From Mobula hypostoma (lineage: Eukaryota), in NCBI RefSeq assembly GCF_963921235.1, contig NC_086107.1:92630001-92694000 (forward strand): a stretch of 64,000 bases of DNA. Direction: 5' to 3'. The translations under genes and the position numbers were made by a program. Below the pieces are notes generated by a model that was given only the letters and a program-made list of their open reading frames with translations, was not told where the DNA came from and searched no databases. Shown here piece after piece: positions 280-55,943 of the stretch (the first letter of the stretch is position 1; the number at the start of each line of letters is the position of its first letter).

Positions 280-930
280 AACCGAGCACGAAATCTGACG
301 GAACGAAGGGTGGATGACTCCCAGCCCAGTCCGCGTCCGGGCTTGGTGGCGGAACATTTTGGGTCTCGTTCACCGGCACGCGGCTTGCCCGAAGTCCCGG
401 AAGAATTATACCAGAATCCAGATCCAACGAGGTGCCTCCTCTCCTAAGTGGAAGATCACGGACTCACTAGCTGAGGATCAAGGGTTGGGATTCACCCAGC
501 AAGGTCCGCCTCTCTCAGTCCAGGCTTTCGGAAGGCCTGACGAGGACAGTCCTCTTGCCCCTTGTTAGAGTTCGGGGTAGCCTCCGAGTTGACTTTTCAC
601 CGGGATTCTAGGCCCAGCTCCCTGCCCTTGCCGCCTGCCCGCCCGCCGCCTGTGTGATGCTGTGCCGAGATGTCGGGCGATGGGGAGGAAGAGCTGTGCC
701 GCAACGCGCTGGCGCTGGTCAATGAACTCTGCTTCAGCATCCGGGGCAATCACAACAATGAGAAGTGCATCGAGTTCTCCTACCTCCTCCGGGACCGGGA
801 CCGCACACGCCACATCGAGACAGGTAATGTCACCCATCGCCTCCCAGTACCCCCCTCCCTGTCACCATCCCCACCCCCACTCCCCCCACCCGGCCTCTCA
901 CCACACGGGACAGAGGCCATTCTGCCCGTT
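280..930. promoter_or_regulatory. CpG-rich, repeat-free region around the SYT3 start codon (5'UTR / CpG-island-like)
   Basis: Visibly higher GC and CpG density than the introns; no TE homology. The TSS cannot be located from sequence. Confidence 0.45.
670..823 (+). CDS. SYT3: Synaptotagmin-3 coding exon 1 (luminal N-terminus with Cys10/Cys21/Cys33)
   Basis: ATG at 670; MSGDGEEELCRNALALVNELC...RHIET resembles the SYT3/ray synaptotagmin-C N-terminus. Donor CAG|GTAATG after 823, phase 1; G + AT of the next exon gives Asp. Confidence 0.95.
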
Positions 931-4675: not shown

Positions 4676-6096
4676 ACTTCTCAGTCGCACCCTGGAAGCA
4701 CACATCCGCAGCCTTCAATAGCGCAGAGAACTGCAGAGCTTTCTGCAAACAGGAATTTCCTCCAGCCTCTGTCCAGTGGGCTCCTCCTTACATGCAGAAA
4801 TAAGCCACGACAGAGTTAACCTGGAATTAGGACTGTCCAAGGATGGAGAATTGGTTTCTTCCCACGATGAAAATCAGTCAAACTTTTATAACAATCTGCT
4901 GGCTTAATGACTGCCATTTTTCTTTCCAAATCCAATTCTCTTTAATTGATTGAATTAAAATTCCCCCGGAGGACTCAATCTCATTGTTCTCGATTCAGGT
5001 CTCTGAATTACTGGTACTGTTAGAAATCAACTATGTTTTGACATCCTCCCCCCAGCCAGGGACAAGAGAGGAACAACGGTTGGACATTGGGGGAGATGAA
5101 CTTTTTTCCACTTTAAAATCATAGGACGCAGAACACAGAACACAGACACACAACAGTACAACACAGGACCAGGCCCTTCAACGCAGGATGTCTATACTGA
5201 ACATATGCTGAATTATTCTCATCCCTTCTGCCCAGACATGATTCATATCTCTCCAGTTCCCATATATTCATGTGTCTGTCTAACAGTATCTTGAACAGCT
5301 CTATTGTATCTGCCCCCACCACCACCCCCTGATCGTGCCCTGATCCAGGAACCCACCACTCTCAGTGTAAGTAAAAACTTGCCCTGCACATCTCCTTTGA
5401 AGTTACCCCCTTTCACCTTAAATAAAGTTTAAGATTAAAACGTACTGTGAAATATTTGATAGCATCAAATCAAATCAGTGAGGATTGTGCTGGGCAGCCT
5501 GCAAGTTTGGCTAGTCTTAAGGCGCCAACATAACATGCCCACCAGTCACTAACCCTAACCATACATTTTTGGACTGTGGGTGGAAACCAGAGCATCTGGA
5601 GGAAATCCACATGGTCATAGGGAAGATGAACAAACTCCTTAAAGACAGTGGCGGGAATTGAACCCTGATCGCTGGCCACCGCACCACCCTCATGACGTCT
5701 CTACCTTGGGGTAAAGGATTCAGGCTGCCTACTCTATCTTCCTCTCTCTCATAATTCTGTTAACATTTTTTGTTAGAAAATTTTTTGTTTTCTCCAGAGA
5801 AAACAACCCATTTTTTGTCCACCCTCTCATTGTCGATCATAGCCTCTAAACCAGGCAGCACCCTGCTGAACCTCTTCTGCACTATCTCCAACCCATCAAT
5901 GTCCTTCGACCAGAACTGCATGCAATAACGTCATGAGATCCTTTACTTCACCCTGAGAGGGCAGCGGACCCCTTGGCTTATTGTACCTTCAACACCCTCA
6001 ATACCACTTCAGTTCATTAGTTCTCTGCAGTGGGTCCACATTGCAGGCAGGAGGGGAGAGCATCCCCAATAAGTTGAGGTATCCAACGCACAGATA

Positions 6097-7310
6097 TAAC
6101 CACATAACAATTACAGCACGGAAACAGGCCATCTCGGCCCTTCTAGTCCGTGCCGAACTCTTACCCTATCCTAGTCCCACCAACCTGAACTCAGCCCATA
6201 ACCCTCCAATCCTTTCCTGTCCATATATCTATCCAATTTAACTTTAAACGCCAACATAGAACCTGCCTCAACCACTTCTGCTGGAAGCTCGTTCCACACA
6301 GCTACCACTCTCTGAGTAAAGAAGCCCCCCTCATGTTACCCCTAAACTTCTGTCCTCTAACACGCAACCCATGTCCTCTTGTTTGAATCTTCCCCACTCT
6401 CAATGGAAAAAGTCTAACCACGTCAACTCTATCAATCCCCCTCATAATCTTAAACACCTCTATCAAGTCCCCACTCAACCATCTACACTCCAAAGAATAA
6501 AGACCTAACTTGTTCAACCTTTCTCTGTAACTTAGGAGAAGAAACCCGGGCAACATTTTAGTAAACCTCCTCTGTACTCTCTCAATTTTATTGACATCTT
6601 TCCTATAATTCGGTGACCAGAACTGTACACAATACTCCAGATTTGGCCTTACCAATGCCTTATACAAATTCAACATTACATCCCAACTCCTATACTCAAT
6701 GCTCTGATTAATAAAGTCAAGCAAACCAAAAGCTTTCTTCACCACCCTATCCACATGAGATTCCATCTTCAGGGAACTATGCACCATTATTCCTAGATCC
6801 CTCCGTTCTAGAGCATTCTTTAATGCCCTACCATTTACCATGTATGTCCTATTTTGATTAGTTCTACCAAAATGTAGCACCTCACATTTTTCTGCATTAA
6901 ACTCCGTCTGCCATCTTTCAGCCCACTCTTCTAACTGTCCTAAATCTCTCTGCAAGTTTTGAAAACCTACCTCATCATCCACGACACCAACTATCTTAGT
7001 ATCATCTGCATACTTACTAATCCAATTTACCACCCCATCATCCAGATCATTAATATATATTACAAACAACATTGGACCCAATACAGATCCCTGAGGCACA
7101 CCGCTACACACCGTCCTCCAATCTGACACACGGTTATCGACCACTACTCTCTGGCGTCTCCCATCTAGCCACTGCTGAATGCATTTAACTACTTCCATAT
7201 TAATGCCTAACGATTGAACCTTCCTAACTAACCTTCCATGTGGAACCTTGTCAAAGGCCTTACTGAAGTCCATATAAACAATATCCACCGTTTTACCCTC
7301 GTCAACTTTC
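6097..7310 (-). mobile_element. CR1 LINE, young, 5'-truncated (RT C-terminal half + 3'UTR)
   Basis: ORF 6302-7288 with [25 protein letters not shown] and LEYCVQFWSP; frameshift near the C-terminus. Confidence 0.95.
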
Positions 7311-7359
7311 TTAAGAAAGTTGAGATACCTGTATAAAATGTGCTAAAACTTTAATGACA

Positions 7360-7600
7360 CCCAGAACAACATACATAAAATGCTGGAGGAACTCAGTAGG
7401 CCAGGCAACATCTATGGAGAGGAATAAACAGTCATTGTTTTGGGCCGAAACCCTTCATTTGTCCCGATGAAGAGTCTTGGCCCGAAACGTCAACTGTTTA
7501 TTCCTCTCCATAGATGTTTCCTGACCTGCTGAGTTCCTCCAGCAGTTTTTGTGTGTGTTGCTCCGGATTTCCAGCATCTGCAGAATCTCTTGTGTTTATG
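7360..7600. mobile_element. PLE-terminus fold-back unit centred on hammerhead motifs
   Basis: Inverted arms at about 7378-7458 and 7467-7547; flanking repeat aatgaca at 7353-7359 and 7601-7607. Confidence 0.8.
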
Positions 7601-12400: not shown

Positions 12401-13280
12401 TGAGGTAGTGTTCATGGATCCAATGTCCATTTAGGAATCGGATGGCAGAGGGGAAGAAGCTGTTCCTGAATCACTGAGTGTGTGCCTTCAGGCTTCTGTA
12501 CCTCCTTCCTGATGGTAACAATGAGAAGAGGCCATGTCTGAGGCATTGCTCCTTGAAGATGCCTTGGATACTGCAAAGGCTGGTACCCAAGATGGAGCTG
12601 ACTAATTTTACAACTTTCTGCAGTTTCTTTTGATCCTGTGCAGTAGCCCCCGAACCCCATACCAGACAGATGCAGCCTGTCAGAATGCTCTCCACAGTAC
12701 ATCTATAGAAGTTTTTGAGTGTTTTAGGTGACAAACCAAATTTCTTCAAACTCCTAATGAAGCATAGCCACTGTCTTGCCTTCTTTATAGCCGTGTCAAT
12801 ATATTGGGACCAGGTTAGATCGTCAGAGATCTTGACACCCAGGAACTTGAAATTGCTCACTCTCTCCACTTCTGATCCCTCTATGAGGATTGGTTTGTGT
12901 TCCTTTGTCTTACCCTTCCTGAAGTCCACAATCAACTCTTTCATCTTACTGACGTTGAGTGCAAGGTTATTGCTGTGACACTGCTCAACTAGCTGGTATA
13001 TCTCACTCCTGTACGTCCTCTCATCTCCACCTGAGGTTCTGCCAACAATGGTTGAATCATCAGCAAGTTTATAGTGGTATTTGAGCTATACCTAGTCACG
13101 CATTTGGGGGTACCGAGAGAGTAGCGCGGTGGCTGAGGCTGGTACAATAACATTTAAAGGGCACTCTTACACATTCATGAATAGGAAATGTTGAGAGTCA
13201 AATGCATTAAAATACCAACTGAAAGGAGTATTTTGTCGACATGGACCTATTGGGCCCAAGGGCTTGTTCCATGTTGTCTA
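11250..13280 (+). mobile_element. Old CR1 split by a PLE fragment (11530-11980, -) and a Rex1/Babar-like LINE (12185-13125, -)
   Basis: CR1 segments 11250-11510, 11980-12180 and 13128-13280 are collinear; the inserts encode EEQHLIFCQGSLQPD and KELIVDFRK...NFYRCTVESILTGCI. Confidence 0.8.
12361..12397. repeat. (AT)n microsatellite
   Basis: About 18 perfect AT units in a LINE 3'UTR. Confidence 0.95.
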
Positions 13281-19769: not shown

Positions 19770-20539
19770 CACTTCAGGGCCCCAGACAGTCCTTCCAGGT
19801 GAGGTGACACTTCACCTGTGAGTCGGCTGGGGTGATATACTGCGTCCGGTGCTCCCGATGTGGCCTTCTATATATTGGCGAGACCCGACGCAGACTGGGA
19901 GACCGCTTTGCTGAACACCTATGCTCTGTCCGCCAGAGAAAGCAGGATCTCCCAGTGGCCACACATTTTAATTCCACATCCCATTCCCATTCTGACATGT
20001 CTATCCACGGCCTCCTCTACTGTAAAGATGAAGCCACACTCAGGTTGGAGGAACAACACCTTATATTCTGTCTGGGTAGCCTCCAACCTGACATTGACTT
20101 CTCTAACTTCCGCCAATGCCCTACCTCCCCCTCGTACTCCATCCGTTATTTATTTTTATACACACATTCTTTCTCTCACTCTCCTGTTTCTCCCTCTGTC
20201 CCTCTGACTATACCCCTTGCCCATCCTCTGGGTCCCCCCCTTGTCTTTCTTCCCGGACCTCCTGTCCCATGATCCTCTCATATCCCCTTTGCCAATCACC
20301 TGTCCAGCTCTCGGCTCCATCCCTCCCCCTCCTGTCTTCTCCTATCATTTTGGATCTCCCCCTCCCCCTCCCACTTTCAAATCTCTTACTAACTCTTCCT
20401 TCAGTTAGTCCTGACGAAGGGTCTCGGCCTGAAACATCGACTGTACCTCTTCCTAGAGATGCTGCCTGACCTGCTGCGTTCACCAGCAACTTTGATGTGT
20501 GTTGCTTGAATTTCCAGCATCTGCAGAATTCCTGTTGTG
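19770..20539 (+). mobile_element. Penelope-like element 3' part (GIY-YIG + terminal repeat), young, with TSD
   Basis: IYCVRCSRCGLLYIGETRRRLGDRFAEH...EEQHLIFCLGSLQP; tgctggagga duplicated at 19760-19769 and 20540-20549. Confidence 0.92.
20406..20443 (+). ncRNA. Hammerhead motif in a young PLE copy; core intact, stem III G>A
   Basis: tagtc-CTGACGA-agggtctcggcct-GAAAC-ATC-gactg; the differences from consensus are CpG-type transitions. Confidence 0.7.
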
Positions 20540-25844: not shown

Positions 25845-26200
25845 TTAGTGTGCGCAAAATGCTGGAGAACTCAGCAGGTCAGCATTATCTACAGAAGGGA
25901 ACAAACAGTCAATGTTTCAGGCCGAGACCCTTCATTGGGACTGGAAAGGAAGGGGGAAAAGCCGGAATAAGAAGGTTGGGTTGGTGGGGGGGAGGCCAGG
26001 AGCACAAGCTGGCAGGTGATGGGTGAGGGGGAAGGTGGGTGGGTGGGGGAGAGGGAATTTATAGTAAGTAACAGAAGGTGTACTGACACACTCAGCAGGT
26101 CAGGCAGCATCTGTGGAGGGGAATAAACAGTCGACGTTTCGAGCCGAAGCCCTTCTTCAGGACTCAGGTCTTGTTTCAGCATCTGCAGAATCTCACTCGT
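25845..26200 (-). mobile_element. Non-coding PLE unit: two tandem termini + inverted tip, 12-bp TSD
   Basis: tagtgatgtgga at 25833-25844 and 26201-26212; hammerheads at 25906-25943 (dead) and 26129-26164 (intact). Confidence 0.88.
26129..26164 (-). ncRNA. Minimal type-I hammerhead ribozyme motif with intact core, in a PLE terminal repeat
   Basis: Minus strand reads agtc-CTGAAGA-a-gggc-ttcg-gctc-GAAAC-GTC-gact: stem I agtc/gact, CUGANGA and GAAA cores, stem II with cUUCGg loop, palindromic ACGU stem III, GUC cleavage triplet. Confidence 0.85.
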
Positions 26201-26619
26201 TAGTGATGTGGAATGCTCTCATTAGATTTGAGAAGCTGAGGGCAAAGCCCGGAAGCAAAATACTGGAAATATGAAATTTCAGATAAGCAGCAAATACTGG
26301 AAATGCGCAGCAGGCCAGGCAGAGAGAGAAATACAACGCAGAACATAGCACATAGAACGGGGACAGTTCCAGCACAGGGACAGACCCTTCCACCGTTGGC
26401 AACTGTGCCAAACAATGATGCAGTATGAAATAAACACCCTCAGCCTGTACGTGATACTTATTCCTTCAATCCCTGAACGTTCATGTGCCTGTCTAAAAGC
26501 CTCTTCAGTGCCTCTATTGCACTGGTACCACCGGCACTTCTGGCAGCCCGTTCCACGCGCCTACCACTCCACGTAAAAAGATATCGCCCCCACACGTCTC
26601 CTTTACGATTCTCCTCTCC

Positions 26620-27295
26620 ACCCGCCAAAGCGGAACTTCCTGGTGGCCAAACATTTTAATTCCCATTCCCACTCCCGTTCTGACATGTCTTGTGCCACGA
26701 TGAGGCCACCCTCAGAGTGGAAGAGCAACAACTTAAATTCCGTCTGGGTAGCCCCTGACCGGAGGGCTTGAATATAGGTTTTAAAAAATTCCTCCCCCCC
26801 CCCTTCCTTCTGTTCCCTACTCTGGCCTCTTACCTCTATTCACCTGCCTATCACCTCCCTTGGGTCCCTTCCTCCTATGATCCACTCCCTTCTCCTATCC
26901 AATTCCTTCCTCCCGAGCCCTTTATCTTTCCAACCCATCTGGCAGGTACAGGGTTCTGAGCTGGATAATCAGCCATGATCATACTGAATGGCGGTGCAGG
27001 CTCAAAGGGCCGAATGGCCTACTCCTGCACCTATTTTCTATGTTTCTATCTGCTTTCACCTATCGCTTTCACCTATCACTTTCCAGCTATCCTTCTTCCC
27101 CTCCCTTTACCATTTCATTCTGTCGCCTCCCCCCCGCCACCTTCCTTTCCAGTCCTGAAAAAGGGTATCAGCCCAAAACGTTTACTGTTTATTCACTTCC
27201 ACAGATGCTGCCTGACCTGCTGAGTTCCTCCAGCAATTTGTGTGCGTTGCTTTGGATTTCCAGCCTCTGCAGATTTTCTTGTGTTTATGTTATTC
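26620..27295 (+). mobile_element. PLE 3' fragment interrupted by a CR1 3' tip (about 26940-27050)
   Basis: Matches the GIY-YIG tail and terminal repeat of the other copies. Confidence 0.75.
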
Positions 27296-27937
27296 TTTAA
27301 CAATTTTCCACTCTCATTTTACATTACATTTCTGTCCCGGGAAATGATTCTGCGTATTCTATTTATGCTTCTCATAAAGTCATAGAACACTACAGCTCAG
27401 AAACTGGCCCTTCAGCCCATCTAGTCCATGCTGAGACGTTATTCTGCCTACTCCCAACGACCTGCACCTGGACCACAGCCTCCATACCCCTATCATCCAT
27501 GTACCTTAAATCATGAAATCGAACCTGCATCCCCACTTCCCCTGGCAGCTCGTTCCACTTTCTCACTACCCTCTGAGTGAAGAAGATGCCTATCAAGTTC
27601 CTCTTAAACATTTCACCTGAATTCAATACTCTACAACTGTGGCCGGACCAGTCTTATATAGTTGCAACATGACTTCCTGACTTGCACTTAGTGATCCAGC
27701 CGATGAAGGCAAGCATAGAGCGCACCTTCTTTACCATCCTAACCCCTTGTGTTACCACTTTCAATGAGGCATAGACATGACTCCAGGATCTCCCTGTACA
27801 TCAGTGCTGTCAAGGGTCCTGCCATAGGGATATGGATCATCTGCAGGCAAAAGAGAATTAGTTCAACTAGTAGAATTACTTGTGACCCGAAGGGTCTGAT
27901 CCTGTGCTGTACTGTCCAATGTTCTGTGCATTAACAT

Positions 27938-29147: not shown

Positions 29148-29174
29148 CTATGTGTTTTCCACCCCTTGTCTCAG

Positions 29175-29562
29175 ATATCTCGGTCAGCCTGCTCTCCGTG
29201 ATTGTCACCTTCTGCGGCATTGTGCTCCTCGGGGTCTCTCTCTTTGTCTCCTGGAAACTGTGCTGGATCCCATGGCGGGACAGAGGCCTGAACCCCCAGC
29301 GCCAGAACTCTCACCACCATCCCCACCACCACCTCCATCACCACCACTCACATTTCACTGACCTCGCTGTCGAGAGGGTCGACGGTGGGTCTGAGATGCC
29401 CGAGAGGTCCTACCTCGACCTGGAGTCCTACCCGGAGTCCGGTATTAAGCTGAGCCAGACCTCTCCTGATATCCCGGTGGACACCAACTCAGGGAGTAAG
29501 GAGAACAGCATCCCGAATGCACACTCCCAGCAGCAAGTCTCTGCGCCTCCTCCAGCAACAAG
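29175..29562 (+). CDS. SYT3: Synaptotagmin-3 coding exon 2 (transmembrane helix, His-rich spacer)
   Basis: Acceptor ccccttgtctcag|AT; DISVSLLSVIVTFCGIVLLGVSLFVSWKLCW is the SYT3 TM signature; donor AAG|GTGGGG, phase 2. Confidence 0.96.
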
Positions 29563-30039
29563 GTGGGGAGCTTCGGTCAAATGGACGTTGGAGTTGGTTC
29601 TTGGGTGGGAGGGGGGTAGAAAATGTGAATTTTAGACCGAAAGACTTAGGAGCAGAGATAAGACTTTGGCATGGCTGATTTATTTCCCTCTCAACCCCAT
29701 TCTCCTTCTTTTTCCCCATAACCTTTGATGCTCTTACTAATCAGAAGCTATCAATCGCCTCTTCATTGACTTGGCCTCCATAACTGTCTGTGGCAATGAA
29801 TTCCACAGATTCACCACCCTCTGCCAAAAGAAATTCCTCCTCATCTCTCTCCTAAAGGGCACCCTTCTCTTCTGGGACAGAGCTCTCTGGTCCTAGAGTC
29901 TCCCACTAAAGGCGTTATATATAGTTTTTGGACGATGGTGGTGGGGAGAGCAGACTTGCGGCATGGCCAACTTGACCCACTCTAGCGTTTGTACTCCCTA
30001 TGAACCATGACTATCCTTCTCATAGCAACATTATAAAGA

Positions 30040-30830: not shown

Positions 30831-30840
30831 TCCCTTGCAG

Positions 30841-31390
30841 ATTTAACTCGCTCCCGAGACCAATCCCACAGCAGTTAAGCAGCCCAGATTGTGCGACTCA
30901 AGCTGATGAGAAGGTGGAGCAAGTAACCAGCATTGGGCAGATCAAGCCTGAATTGTACAAACAGCGGTCGATCGACGCGGAGGCGAAAAAACACCAGAAG
31001 GGCAATTGTGGCCGGATCAACTTCCTGCTGCGCTACACCTACGCGAGCGAGCAGCTGATCGTTAAGATCCTGAAGGCCCTTGACCTCCCCGCCAAAGACG
31101 CCAACGGATTCTCCGACCCCTACGTGAAGATCTACCTGTTGCCTGACCGCAAGAAGAAGTTCCAGACCAAGGTCCATCGCAAGACCCTCAACCCAATCTT
31201 CAACGAGACCTTTCACTTCAACGTGTCCTTCAACGAGCTCCAGAATCGCAAGCTGCACTTTAGCATCTATGACTTTGACCGCTTCTCCCGGCATGACCTC
31301 ATTGGGCAGGTGGTGCTGGACAACCTCCTGGAGTTCTCGGACCTCTCTGAGGGCACGACCATGTGGCGAGACATCCTGGAAGGCACCTCG
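30841..31390 (+). CDS. SYT3: Synaptotagmin-3 coding exon 3 (spacer + C2A domain)
   Basis: Acceptor tcccttgcag|A; (R)[14 protein letters not shown]...[37 protein letters not shown]...[13 protein letters not shown]...ILEGTS; donor TCG|GTGAGT, phase 0. Confidence 0.97.
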
Positions 31391-40354: not shown

Positions 40355-40990
40355 GATTCCTCTCCTCCTTCCCTTTCTTCCATGGTTCATTTTCCTCTCC
40401 TATCAGATTCCTCCTTCTTCAGTCTTTTATCTTTTCCTCCTATCACCTCCCAGCTTCCCACTTCATCCTCCCCCACCCACTCACTTTCCCCATCGTCTGG
40501 TCTCACCTATCCCCTGCCAGCTTGTACTCCTTCCCCTCCTGCCACCTTCTTATTCCGGCTTCTTTCCGTTTCCTTCTCAATCCTGATGAAGGGTCTAGGC
40601 CTGAAATGTTGACCATTTATTCCTCTTACCACTTCTCTTCTCCTCACCTGCCCATCACTTCCCTCTAGAGCTCCTCCTCCTTCCCTTTCTCCCATGGTGC
40701 CCTCTCCTCTCCTATCGGATTCCTTCTTCTTCAGCCTTTTCCACCTATCACCTCCCAGCTTCTTACTTCATCTGCCCTTCCCCCTCACCTGGTCTCACCT
40801 ATCACCTACCACCTTGTACTCCTTCTCATCTCTCACCTTCATATTCTGGTTCCCCCCCTTCTGTCCAATCCTGATGAAGGGTCTCAGCTCAAATCATCAA
40901 TTATGTATTGTCCTCCATCGATGACGCCTGACCGCATGAGATCCTCCAGGATTTTGCGTGTGTTCCCGCTGCAGAATCAATTTTGTTTAA
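40355..40990 (+). mobile_element. Tandem pair of PLE 3' terminal repeats
   Basis: Two direct copies, each with CTGATGA-agggtct (40583 and 40871). Confidence 0.82.
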
Positions 40991-47956: not shown

Positions 47957-49405
47957 AGAACATAGAACATAGAATAGTACAGCACAGTACAGGCCCTTCA
48001 GCCCACAATGTTATGCCGACCCTCAAACCCTGCCTCCCATATAACCCCCCCACCTTAATCTCCTCCATATACCTGCCTAGTTGTCTCTTAAATTTCACTC
48101 ATGTATCTGCCTCCACCACTGACCCAGGCAGTGTATTCCACACACCAACCACTCTCTGAGTAAAAACCTTCCTTTAATATCCCCCTTGAACTTCCCACCC
48201 CTTACCTTAAAGCCATGTCCCCTTGTATTGGGCAGTGGTGCCCTGGGGAAGAGGCGCTGGCTGTCCACTCTATCTATTCCTCTTATTATCTTATATACTT
48301 CTATCATGTCTCCTCTCATCCTCCTTCTCTCCAAAGAGTAAAGTCCTAGCTCCCTTAATCTCTGATCATAATCCATACTCTCTAAACCAGGCAGCATCCT
48401 GGTAAATCTCCTCTGTACCCTTTCCAATGCTTCCACATCCTTCCTATAGTGAGGCGACCAGAACTGGACACAGTACTCAAGTGTGGCCTAACCAGAGTTT
48501 TACAGAGCTGCATCATTACCTCGTGACTCTTAAACTCTATCCCTCAACTTATGAAAGCTAATACCCCATAAGCTTTCTTAACTACCCTATCTACCTGTGA
48601 GGCAACTTTCAGAAATCTTTGGACATATACCCCCAGATCCTTCTGCTCCTCCATACCACCAAGTATCCTGCCATTTACTTTGTACTCTGCCTTGGAGTTT
48701 GTCCTTCCAAAGTGTACCACCTCACACTTCCATGGGTTGAACTCCATCTGCCACTTCTCAGCACACTTCTGCAACCTATCAATGTCTCTCTGCAATCTTT
48801 GACAATCCTCTACACTATCTACAACACCACCAACCTTTGTGTTGTCTGCAAACTTGCCAACCTACCCTTCTACCCCCACATCCAGGTTGTTAATAAAAAT
48901 CACGAAAAGTAGAGGTCCCAGAACCGATCCTTGTGGGACACCACTAGTCACAATCCTCCAATCCAAATGTACTCCCTCCACCATGACTCTCTGCCTTCCG
49001 CAGGCAAACCAATTCTGAATCCACCTGGCCAAACTTCCCTGGATCCCATGCCTTCTGACTTTCTGAATAAGCCTACCATGTGGAACCTTGTCAAATGCCT
49101 TACTAAGATCCATATAGATCACATCCACTGCACTACCCTCATCTATATGCCTGGTCACCTCCTCAAAGAACTCTATCAGGCTTGTTCGACATGATCTGCC
49201 CTTCACAAAGCCATGCTGACTGTCTCTGATCAGACCGTGATTCTCTAAATGCCCATAGATCCTATCTCTAAGAATCTTTTCCAACAACTTTCCCTCCACA
49301 GACGTAAGGCTTACTGGTCTATAATTACCTGGACTATCCCTACTACCTCTTTTGAACAAGGGGACAACAATAGCCTCCCTCCAATCCTCTGATATCATTC
49401 CCATA
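47955..49405 (-). mobile_element. CR1 LINE, young, 5'-truncated
   Basis: [48 protein letters not shown]; (catagaa)n tail at 47955-47974. Confidence 0.95.
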
Positions 49406-49406
49406 G

Positions 49407-49431
49407 ACAACACACACATATATACACATAA

Positions 49432-49463
<32 letters not shown>

Positions 49464-49530
49464 ACATAAACACATACGCATACATATACACACATAAACA
49501 CAAACACACACTTACACATATGAACACATA
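49407..49530. repeat. Compound (CA)n/(TA)n microsatellite, right half
   Basis: Same composition as 47716-47956. Confidence 0.92.
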
Positions 49531-50095
49531 ATATGTTGGAGGTACTCAACAGGTCAGGCAGCATCTATGGAAGTGAATAATCAGTTGACATTTCAGGTCG
49601 AGATCCTTCTTCGTCAGAACTGGAAAGGAAGGCAGAAGATGCCAGAATAAAAAAGTGGGGGGAGAAGGAGGACTAGCTAGAAAGTGATTGGTGAAGCCAG
49701 GTGGGTGAGAAACGCAAAAGGCTGGAGAGGAGAGTGGACCATGGGGGAAAGGGAAGAAGAGGGGCAGCAGGGGGAGGTGATAGGCAGGTGAGGAGAAGAG
49801 GTAAGATGTCAGTGGCAAAAGAGGAGGCCATGGACTGACATGTTGGGACGGGAACGGGGATGGGAATTAAAATGGATGGCCACCGGGAAATTCCACTTTG
49901 AGCAGATGGAGTGGAGGTGCTCGACAAAGTGGTCCTCCAATTTACGTTGGGTCCCACCAATGTAGAGGAGGCTGCATTGGGAGCATTGGATACAATAGAT
50001 CACCCCGACAGATTCACAGATGAAGTGTTGCCCAGCCGGGAGGGACTGCTTGGGGCCCGGAATGGAGGTGAAGGAGGAACTGAATGGACAGGTGT
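49525..50095 (-). mobile_element. PLE 3' fragment; its tip is displaced to 47673-47725
   Basis: IYCIQCSQCSLLYIGGTQRKLEDHFVEH; the terminal repeat is split at its internal acacac run. Confidence 0.85.
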
Positions 50096-54696: not shown

Positions 54697-54817
54697 GAGA
54701 AGGCCGACCTAGGTGAGATCAACTTCTCTCTGTGCTACCTGCCAACAGCCGGGCGACTCACCATCACCATCATCAAAGCCACCAACCTCAAGGCAATGGA
54801 TTTAACCGGATTTTCAG
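54697..54817 (+). CDS. SYT3: Synaptotagmin-3 coding exon 4 (start of C2B); absent from the ORF track
   Basis: Acceptor cctcttccttcag|GAG; hand translation [40 protein letters not shown]; donor CAG|GTAGTT; 121 nt, phase 1. Confidence 0.95.
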
Positions 54818-55009
54818 GTAGTTTCACCAGATAAGCTTACCTGCTCTCCTTTCAGCCGAGGCAGTTACACACTCTGACCCCACTTCGGTTCACTCACACT
54901 GCTCCATCCCACCCCCACACAATAATAGAGCGCTGATGTAATCTATCACACGCCTGTCTCCACGTGAAGGAGGGAGGTGGGAGAAGCCCGACTATAGCCT
55001 TGTCTTCCT

Positions 55010-55580: not shown

Positions 55581-55771
55581 TTGGGGCGATAACTCCTGGC
55601 TGGTTTCTGTGTACTGCTTCTCCCTGCGTAGGGTGCCGAGGCCAATTACAGCAGGGGTCGGTGGGGGTGGGACTGGTCTCTGCGAATATTGGGGTGAGTG
55701 AATCAATGGGCTCAAGGCTTTGGCGTACCTCAGCCCGAGAGATGTCCCAGCAGCCTGCTCTCCTCCTGCAG

Positions 55772-55943
55772 ATCCCTACGTGAAAGCCTCGCTGATATGC
55801 GAAGGGAGGCGGCTGAAGAAGCGGAAGACATCGATAAAGAAGAACACGCTGAACCCGGTGTACAATGAGGCGCTGGTCTTCGACATTCCCAATGAGAACA
55901 TGGATCATGTCAACGTGATCATCGCCGTCATGGACTATGATTG
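55772..55943 (+). CDS. SYT3: Synaptotagmin-3 coding exon 5 (C2B polybasic region); gene continues beyond the window
   Basis: Acceptor ctctcctcctgcag|AT; (D)[56 protein letters not shown](C); donor TG|GTGAGA; 172 nt, phase 2. The expected next exon (IGHNEVIG...) was not seen before 64000. Confidence 0.95.

Follow-up and report, generated by a model that had tools for sequence, protein, structure and literature searches.

The question raised by this locus is whether a complete hammerhead motif, lying in an intron of a neuronal gene of a ray, is a ribozyme that the host has kept or a leftover of a repeat. We answer it by following the motif from its letters to its family, its element, its folding and its gene context. 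The window referred to throughout is the whole stretch of DNA that was analysed, 64,000 nucleotides long.

The motif and its statistical support

Read from the window sequence, the minus strand from 26164 to 26129 is AGUC-CUGAAGA-A-GGGC-UUCG-GCUC-GAAAC-GUC-GACU, exactly the letters that an earlier note on this DNA had given for a hammerhead. The parts are as follows.

26129..26164, minus strand: complete minimal type-I hammerhead motif (min-HHR), from the letters and a descriptor match unique in the window
26164-26161, minus strand: helix I, 5' strand (2.4-2.1)
26160-26154, minus strand: C3-A9 box (CUGAAGA)
26153, minus strand: single unpaired A between A9 and G10.1
26152-26149 with 26144-26141, minus strand: helix II, 4 bp (G-C, G-U, G-C, C-G)
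26148-26145, minus strand: helix II loop, UUCG
26140-26138, minus strand: G12, A13 and A14
26137-26134, minus strand: A15.1, C15.2, G16.2 and U16.1 (palindromic ACGU, replacing helix III, loopless)
26133, minus strand: C17
26132-26129, minus strand: helix I, 3' strand

Helix I (AGUC/GACU) comprises 4 bp and is open-ended, as in type I, the next position being G opposite G. The G10.1-C11.1 pair is present (G 26152 with C 26141), and all 11 scored core bases are kept. A min-HHR descriptor demanding a 4-bp helix I, CUGANGA, a bulge of 0-1, a helix II of at least 4 bp, GAAA, paired 15.2/16.2, U and H matched exactly once on the two strands of the window, at 26129..26164 with a bulge of 1, and it gave no match across 200 dinucleotide-preserving shuffles. 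As judged by these core bases and this match, the proposal of a complete hammerhead core of the dimer-requiring type is borne out. The loose core pattern CTGANGA N6-30 GAAAC occurred at chance level (2 matches, 1.23 expected; at least 2 in 34 of 100 shuffles). The Rfam hammerhead families (types I, II and III, HH9 and HH10) gave no match in the window at gathering score, and at E<=10 the 501 bases of 25900-26400 gave two matches, neither to a hammerhead family. A motif lacking helix III is expected to be missed in this way, and we read the result as a limit of the models rather than as counter-evidence. With C17 at 26133, the cut is predicted from the letters to fall between 26133 and 26132 on the minus strand, in agreement with the earlier assignment. 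The count of three retained CpGs has to be corrected to four (TTCG, CTCG, ACG and TCG).

Abundance of the family in the genome

The intact 28-nt core pattern, CTGANGAAGGGYYTCGGCYYGAAACGTC, had 57,849 exact matches in the 3.48-Gb assembly (28,861 forward and 28,988 reverse), and the reversed control of the same pattern had none genome-wide. The commonest form of the motif in the genome is CTGACGAAGGGTCTCGGCCTGAAACGTC. For a block of 20 nt next to the motif on its downstream side there were 156,383 genome matches, and for the intact core joined to the downstream letters of the 26164 copy itself (GACTGTT), which define its subfamily, there were 320. The description of the site as the one fully intact hammerhead consequently holds within the window, with its single descriptor match, and fails genome-wide, as the 57,849 exact core-pattern matches show; the genome holds tens of thousands of copies better than 26129..26164. 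Head-to-head inverted pairs are also very common genome-wide, for example at G000:C1:109236 (minus strand) and 109307 (plus strand).

The element that carries the motif

Eight 3-kb loci round intact motifs were examined, and in three of them (L002, L007 and L008) the motif lay 297 nt past the stop codon of an ORF. This ORF ends in ..GMNIDFSNFR and holds a GIY..YIG..R..EH stretch, which Pfam scored as GIY-YIG with E 6.1e-4 and 20.5 bits, below the cut-off of 22.6. A genome search with a 267-aa piece of the ORF returned 213,638 first-look candidates; the 144 that were scored were all 88-100% identical, with open frames up to 1043 aa.

The fullest layout was seen at L021 (G000:C12:171222400-171228900), where an open frame of 1043 aa lies between two identical motifs of one strand, with 3512 nt from the first to the second. 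The upstream motif ends about 60 nt before the frame and the downstream one lies about 300 nt after its stop. The upstream repeat begins inside the sequence of the ORF's 3' end, and the arrangement is therefore a partial tandem. Both domains of the 1043-aa frame scored below their Pfam cut-offs: RVT_1 at residues 534-696 (E 2.1e-5, 24.8 bits against 29.6) and GIY-YIG at residues 946-1022 (E 0.0024, 18.6 bits against 22.6). Of 8,000 scored, 460 homologues reached E<=1e-5; those with names are uncharacterised proteins from a shark, two molluscs and a sea urchin. The homologues carry precomputed PF00078, PF28514 and PF26215, and some also PF01541.

Penelope-like elements (PLEs) are described in PMC8557442, as far as its accessible text goes, as combining a reverse transcriptase (RT) with a C-terminal GIY-YIG domain, and as showing 5' truncation, partial tandems and adjacent inverted truncated copies. 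The same insertion signature was found here: 5' truncation, the partial tandem of L021, and adjacent inverted truncated copies, with inverted head-to-head pairs in L001, L003/L004 and L006 and also in the window (7443/7469). The longer window copies have an upstream part that can be aligned to the 3' UTR of the element with the ORF, and their truncation points vary. From its sequence, then, the repeat is assigned to the 3' pseudo-LTR region of a Penelope-like retrotransposon, a label that rests on domain order, the precomputed domains of the homologues and the layout, the domain scores of L021 itself being sub-cut-off.

L010 was considered as the source of an upstream RT for the L008 copy and was rejected: besides an inverted piece it holds an RT of LINE type that is unrelated, and neither of its two frames had a Pfam match. 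The element family looks young and very large, as judged by the copy counts, the many copies at 88-100% protein identity and the open frames of up to 1043 aa.

The 75-nt fragment and the other copies in the window

Comparison of the window with itself placed the motif in a short fragment with the following surroundings.

26090..26164, minus strand: 75-nt fragment of the 3' region of a Penelope-like element, carrying the motif (blastn against the window and alignments)
26173..26194, plus strand: short inverted piece whose letters match those at the 3' end of the element itself, ..TTTC(C)AGCATCTGCAGAATCTC (comparison with aligned 3' ends)
25855..26058, minus strand: longer neighbouring copy of the same element (blastn and alignment)
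20407..20442, plus strand (the sense strand of SYT3): second-best window copy (core 11/11, helices I and II 4/4)
19808..20269, plus strand: open frame encoding a GIY-YIG endonuclease domain; it is the 3' end of the ORF of a Penelope-like element (Pfam PF01541)

Within the window, blastn homology to all other copies begins exactly at AGTC (26164) and ends at ..CTGCTGAG (26090). By these alignment limits the fragment is truncated at both ends, with the motif at its extreme 5' edge. The inverted piece at 26173..26194 abuts the 5' truncation point of the fragment, head-to-head; an inverted 5'-truncated copy or a short 'tail' beside an insertion is given as a hallmark of Penelope-like elements in the accessible text of PMC8557442.

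Eighteen repeat copies in the window could be aligned. All 11 scored core bases are kept in six of them, and only 26129..26164 keeps the core together with every pair, which bears out the view that it is the best-preserved copy of the window. The 14-nt helix II word, with at most 3 mismatches, had 20 matches in the window against 3.83 expected. The hammerhead of the longer neighbouring copy (25942-25907) is decayed, with CCAAUGA for CUGAUGA and GAAACAUU for GAAACGUC; its core stands at 9 of 11 and 15.2-16.2 is unpaired. It starts 222 nt past the 26164 motif, downstream on the same strand. In the copy at 20407..20442, GAAACAUC leaves only C15.2 and A16.2 unpaired, and directly upstream lies the frame at 19808..20269, whose PF01541 match (E 3.4e-5, 24.5 bits) passes the cut-off of 22.6. 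Being in the sense orientation within the SYT3 intron, the 20407-20442 copy is part of the pre-mRNA.

Other arrangements were also seen in the window. Two copies lie head-to-head at 7391-7548, with hammerheads at 7443-7456 (minus strand) and 7469-7482 (plus strand). Two same-strand hammerhead copies, 40588-40623 and 40876-40911 (plus strand), are 288 nt apart, and 16 nt past the cut site of the 40588 unit the sequence jumps back to the region normally upstream of the hammerhead. By its sequence, this junction would be of the kind expected of a retrozyme-like or circle-derived tandem, unlike the usual 3' end. A separate repeat, found at 5166-5179 (minus strand), 26377-26390 (minus strand) and 27889-27902 (plus strand) with the word GAAGGG(T/C)CTG..CC TGTGCTGTACTGT, mimics part of helix II without a hammerhead core. 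A third tandem unit at about 26305-26390, suggested by the repeat search, was rejected, as its 'GAAGGGTCTGTCCC..' word belongs to this separate repeat, which is also present at 5166 and 27889.

Comparison with known hammerheads

The closest published relative is the min-HHR, a hammerhead without helix III or loop 3 that PLEs carry in each of their two flanking repeats (Cervera and de la Pena 2014, PMC4209133). According to the accessible text of that article, helix I of the min-HHR has 4-5 bp, the G10.1-C11.1 pair is conserved, 15.2-16.2 is palindromic, a single nucleotide stays unpaired between A9 and G10.1, and the base at the cleavage site is other than G. It also describes thousands of dispersed single min-HHRs, interpreted as truncated PLEs, and opposite-strand pairs 100-700 bp apart, and reports no cleavage for the monomer and weak cleavage for dimers and trimers. 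A review (PMC6765202) concurs on the min-HHR, as far as its accessible part goes, and credits dimer cleavage to Lunse, Weinberg and Breaker, RNA Biol 2017.

Every listed sequence feature is found in the 26129..26164 motif, which shares with the published PLE motif the type-I layout, CUGANGA, GAAA, the ACGU palindrome, the unpaired base, the G10.1-C11.1 pair and a 4-bp helix I. At the level of the family, the shared traits are the presence of the motif on both sides of an RT and GIY-YIG ORF, the many truncated single copies and the opposite-strand pairs. The pseudo-LTR location holds for the family (L021), while this copy retains just the 75-nt homologous fragment. Two differences are evident from the same portion of PMC4209133: helix II has 4 bp in the ray motif compared to 7-8 bp in Schistosoma and 6 bp in Drosophila virilis, and the 57,849 ray matches, all of one sequence type, are well above the roughly 4,000 min-HHRs of coelacanth and 9,000 of Xenopus. 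Among the literature matches listed, none dealt with hammerheads of PLEs in rays. The accessible text of PMC4209133 names no cartilaginous fishes, which may figure in its supplements.

Three further systems are instructive. The Poseidon element of Anolis carolinensis (PAc) resembles the ray family in that its hammerhead, located in a PLE pseudo-LTR, has stems I and II alone (Mob DNA 2024, PMC11167929). According to the accessible text of that article, the PAc hammerhead required addition of the element's protein for cutting, mutation of the core left insertion in vitro unimpaired, and no RNA-seq reads ended at the cut site. In PAc the ORF starts inside the hammerhead, whereas the upstream copy of L021 stops short of its frame. 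The double hammerheads of newt satellite 2 and avocado sunblotch viroid (Forster et al. 1988, accessible part) are like the ray motif in that helix III is too weak for the monomer and two units pair. Those RNAs have a helix III of 1-2 bp with a small loop and occur as regular tandem or rolling-circle multimers; the ray motif, by contrast, has no loop 3, and this copy has no intact partner nearby. Finally, a 2026 preprint (10.64898/2026.07.22.740005) states in its accessible portion that vertebrate non-LTR retrozymes derive from PLE pseudo-LTRs (pLTRs), and that they were found in the single Chondrichthyes genome sampled, with a mean consensus of 363 bp. The ray site has in common with them that it is a short hammerhead-bearing repeat related to PLE pLTRs, but the retrozymes form regular tandem arrays whereas the ray site is a single truncated fragment beside one unequal copy.

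The stem II variant and its predicted folding

The exact stem II of the motif (GGGCTTCGGCTC within an intact core) was matched once in 3.48 Gb, by the window copy itself. The variant is thus private, a finding that the earlier note had itself named as speaking against its reading. Relative to the family form GGGU-CUCG-GCC(C/U) there are three differences (GGGU>GGGC, loop CUCG>UUCG and GCCC>GCUC); all three are one-sided transitions and none is compensatory. Two of the three complete or lengthen a rival hairpin, AGUCCU/AGGGCU.

The hammerhead fold was calculated at -7.5 kcal/mol in 26129..26164 compared to -6.0 kcal/mol in a copy of the commonest form, and within that fold helix II gains slightly in stability from its C(UUCG)G loop. 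However, the predicted minimum free energy of the 36-mer (-11.3 kcal/mol) belongs to another fold, and its pair probabilities for helices I and II were 0.00 against 0.65-0.95 in the commonest-form copy. The rival hairpin is accordingly predicted to displace the hammerhead fold in 26129..26164. It should be underlined that thermodynamic folding ignores tertiary contacts and proteins. In 121-nt contexts, hammerhead pairing fell to about 0 for both the window copy and the commonest form, so that folding is a weak guide which cannot separate active from inactive copies. Two copies can be paired as a double hammerhead in a valid nested structure, for which -13.9 kcal/mol was calculated; the predicted dimer optimum is -27.5 kcal/mol. 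Taken together, the idea that stem II represents meaningful structure-preserving variation did not hold up: the changes are private, one-sided transitions and the rival hairpin is favoured.

A separate observation concerns the commonest family form (including L021 4607-4660, minus strand), in which N7 is C. Here G5-A6-C7-G8 can pair with C15.2-G16.2-U16.1-C17 (GACG/CGUC), and the predicted optimum of the monomer is a closed, presumably inactive fold that retains helices I and II. Such a fold might serve as an 'off' state of the monomer.

Gene context and presence in a second sample

The gene surrounding the motif was mapped by tblastn with P0121, a 537-aa protein named synaptotagmin-C of Mobula birostris, which gave the following matches.

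670..822, plus strand: synaptotagmin-C/SYT3 coding exon, residues 1-51, upstream intron boundary (98% identity)
29171..29572, plus strand: synaptotagmin-C/SYT3 coding exon, residues 51-184, downstream intron boundary (97% identity)
30839-31390, plus strand: SYT3 exon, residues 181-364 (100% identity; C2 domain, E 2e-31)
54697-54831 and 55768-55941, plus strand: further synaptotagmin-C matches

The best solved-structure match of the exon at 30839-31390 was Synaptotagmin-3. The motif at 26129..26164 lies within a 28-kb intron of SYT3, on the strand opposite to the gene, and its placement antisense to SYT3 was correctly called, as the plus-strand exons 670-822 and 29171-29572 flank the minus-strand motif. 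Owing to this orientation, the SYT3 pre-mRNA bears the complement of the motif and not the ribozyme.

Logan contigs of the runs X8, X1, X2 and X4 covered repeat parts only, save for two X8 contigs on unique flanks; contig depth on the repeat parts derives from other copies, and the contigs carry no strand, ends or level. One X8 contig, which spans 26135-26671 and so joins unique flank to motif, differs at 29 letters and has 1 gap. This contig indicates that the locus exists in that sample, and the insertion may be common to another individual or a close relative.

Other retroelement remains are present in the same intron region, on the minus strand at 6305-7342, 48865-49545 and 12474-13085. 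Two of these frames gave strong RVT_1 matches (E 2.8e-22 and 3.2e-26), probably of LINE type, and one gave an ALKBH8_N-like match (E 2.5e-6).

Weighing the explanations

Resemblance by chance, with no hammerhead at all, would fit the silence of the Rfam hammerhead models at gathering score and at E<=10 as well as the chance-level count of the loose core pattern. It does not fit the absence of the full descriptor from all 200 shuffles, the 57,849 genome copies of the 28-nt motif, its recurrence to either side of an RT-endonuclease ORF, or the presence of every published min-HHR feature; the genome copy number, the flanking motifs of L021 and the shuffle test rule it out, with next to no probability left to it. 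A real hammerhead could have come from a short non-autonomous derivative of a PLE pseudo-LTR (a 'non-LTR retrozyme' or SINE-like element) spreading as tandem units, perhaps via circular RNA excised by the hammerheads. The short-spaced same-strand pairs (26164/25942 and 40588/40876), the backward jump of the 40588 unit 16 nt past its cut site and the reported retrozymes from PLE pLTRs in a chondrichthyan genome (10.64898/2026.07.22.740005, accessible portion) would all agree with this. We nevertheless consider it unlikely: the alignment of the longer copies to the 3' UTR and their varied truncation points fit 5'-truncated autonomous copies, outside the 75 nt the 26164 and 25942 units do not truly repeat one another, and no long regular array was seen. 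Such a derivative would still belong to the same class. The 75-nt fragment itself, of the 'GACTGTTTATTC' subfamily, is too short to be assigned to an autonomous or a non-autonomous source.

A further reading is that the host has taken the motif over: an antisense transcript from the SYT3 intron would contain it as a functional ribozyme, and selection would preserve stem II with its UUCG cap. The motif is the only complete one among the 18 window copies, its four CpGs are kept, its hammerhead fold is scored slightly more stable than that of the commonest form, and the X8 contig suggests that the locus occurs in a second sample. Against these points stand a private variant consisting only of one-sided transitions from the family form, changes that favour the rival hairpin, a min-HHR that cannot act alone beside a neighbour whose core is dead, and an orientation antisense to the only gene seen. 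Moreover, the whole 75-nt fragment is little diverged, and an intact core is therefore expected even without selection. A take-over by the host is thus extremely improbable. It is likewise very doubtful that 26129..26164 or 20407-20442 is transcribed in the SYT3 locus and cut in trans by pairing with RNAs of the tens of thousands of intact family members, assisted by the protein of the element, whose frames are still open in some copies; if this were so, intronic relic hammerheads would let a retroelement nick host or antisense transcripts of a neuronal gene.

The explanation that we favour with considerable confidence is that the site is a relic, namely a doubly truncated 75-nt fragment of a PLE 3' pseudo-LTR which lies antisense in the SYT3 intron and bears a min-HHR. 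In whole elements the motif stands on both sides of the RT-endonuclease ORF, and two copies would pair through the palindrome ACGU, since the motif has no helix III of its own. Helix I would then form between 2.x of one copy and 1.x of the other, and the resulting double hammerhead would cut after C17; that the family motif cleaves, and in this manner, is taken by analogy from published work on other PLEs. The 26129..26164 copy itself probably does nothing, given that no ORF or promoter of its own was seen, that its sole same-strand neighbour is broken in the core and that it is oriented against the host gene. Its intact core needs no selection, as the fragment differs from its subfamily at few sites and a third of the window copies (6 of 18) keep the core. 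With a private variant and a hammerhead fold that is not favoured in the predictions, this copy bears no sign of selection. The site is ordinary, a neutral relic of a class of ribozymes known from print since 2014, and as one more decayed copy of that class it matters very little on its own. The ray genome is of modest wider use in that it holds an unusually large and uniform set of min-HHRs together with element copies that have open RT-endonuclease frames of 1043 aa. The cutting of PLE hammerheads in vivo is still unsettled in print, as judged by the accessible parts of PMC8557442, PMC6765202 and PMC11167929, and a genome of this kind would be suited to a search for RNA ends at the predicted cut.
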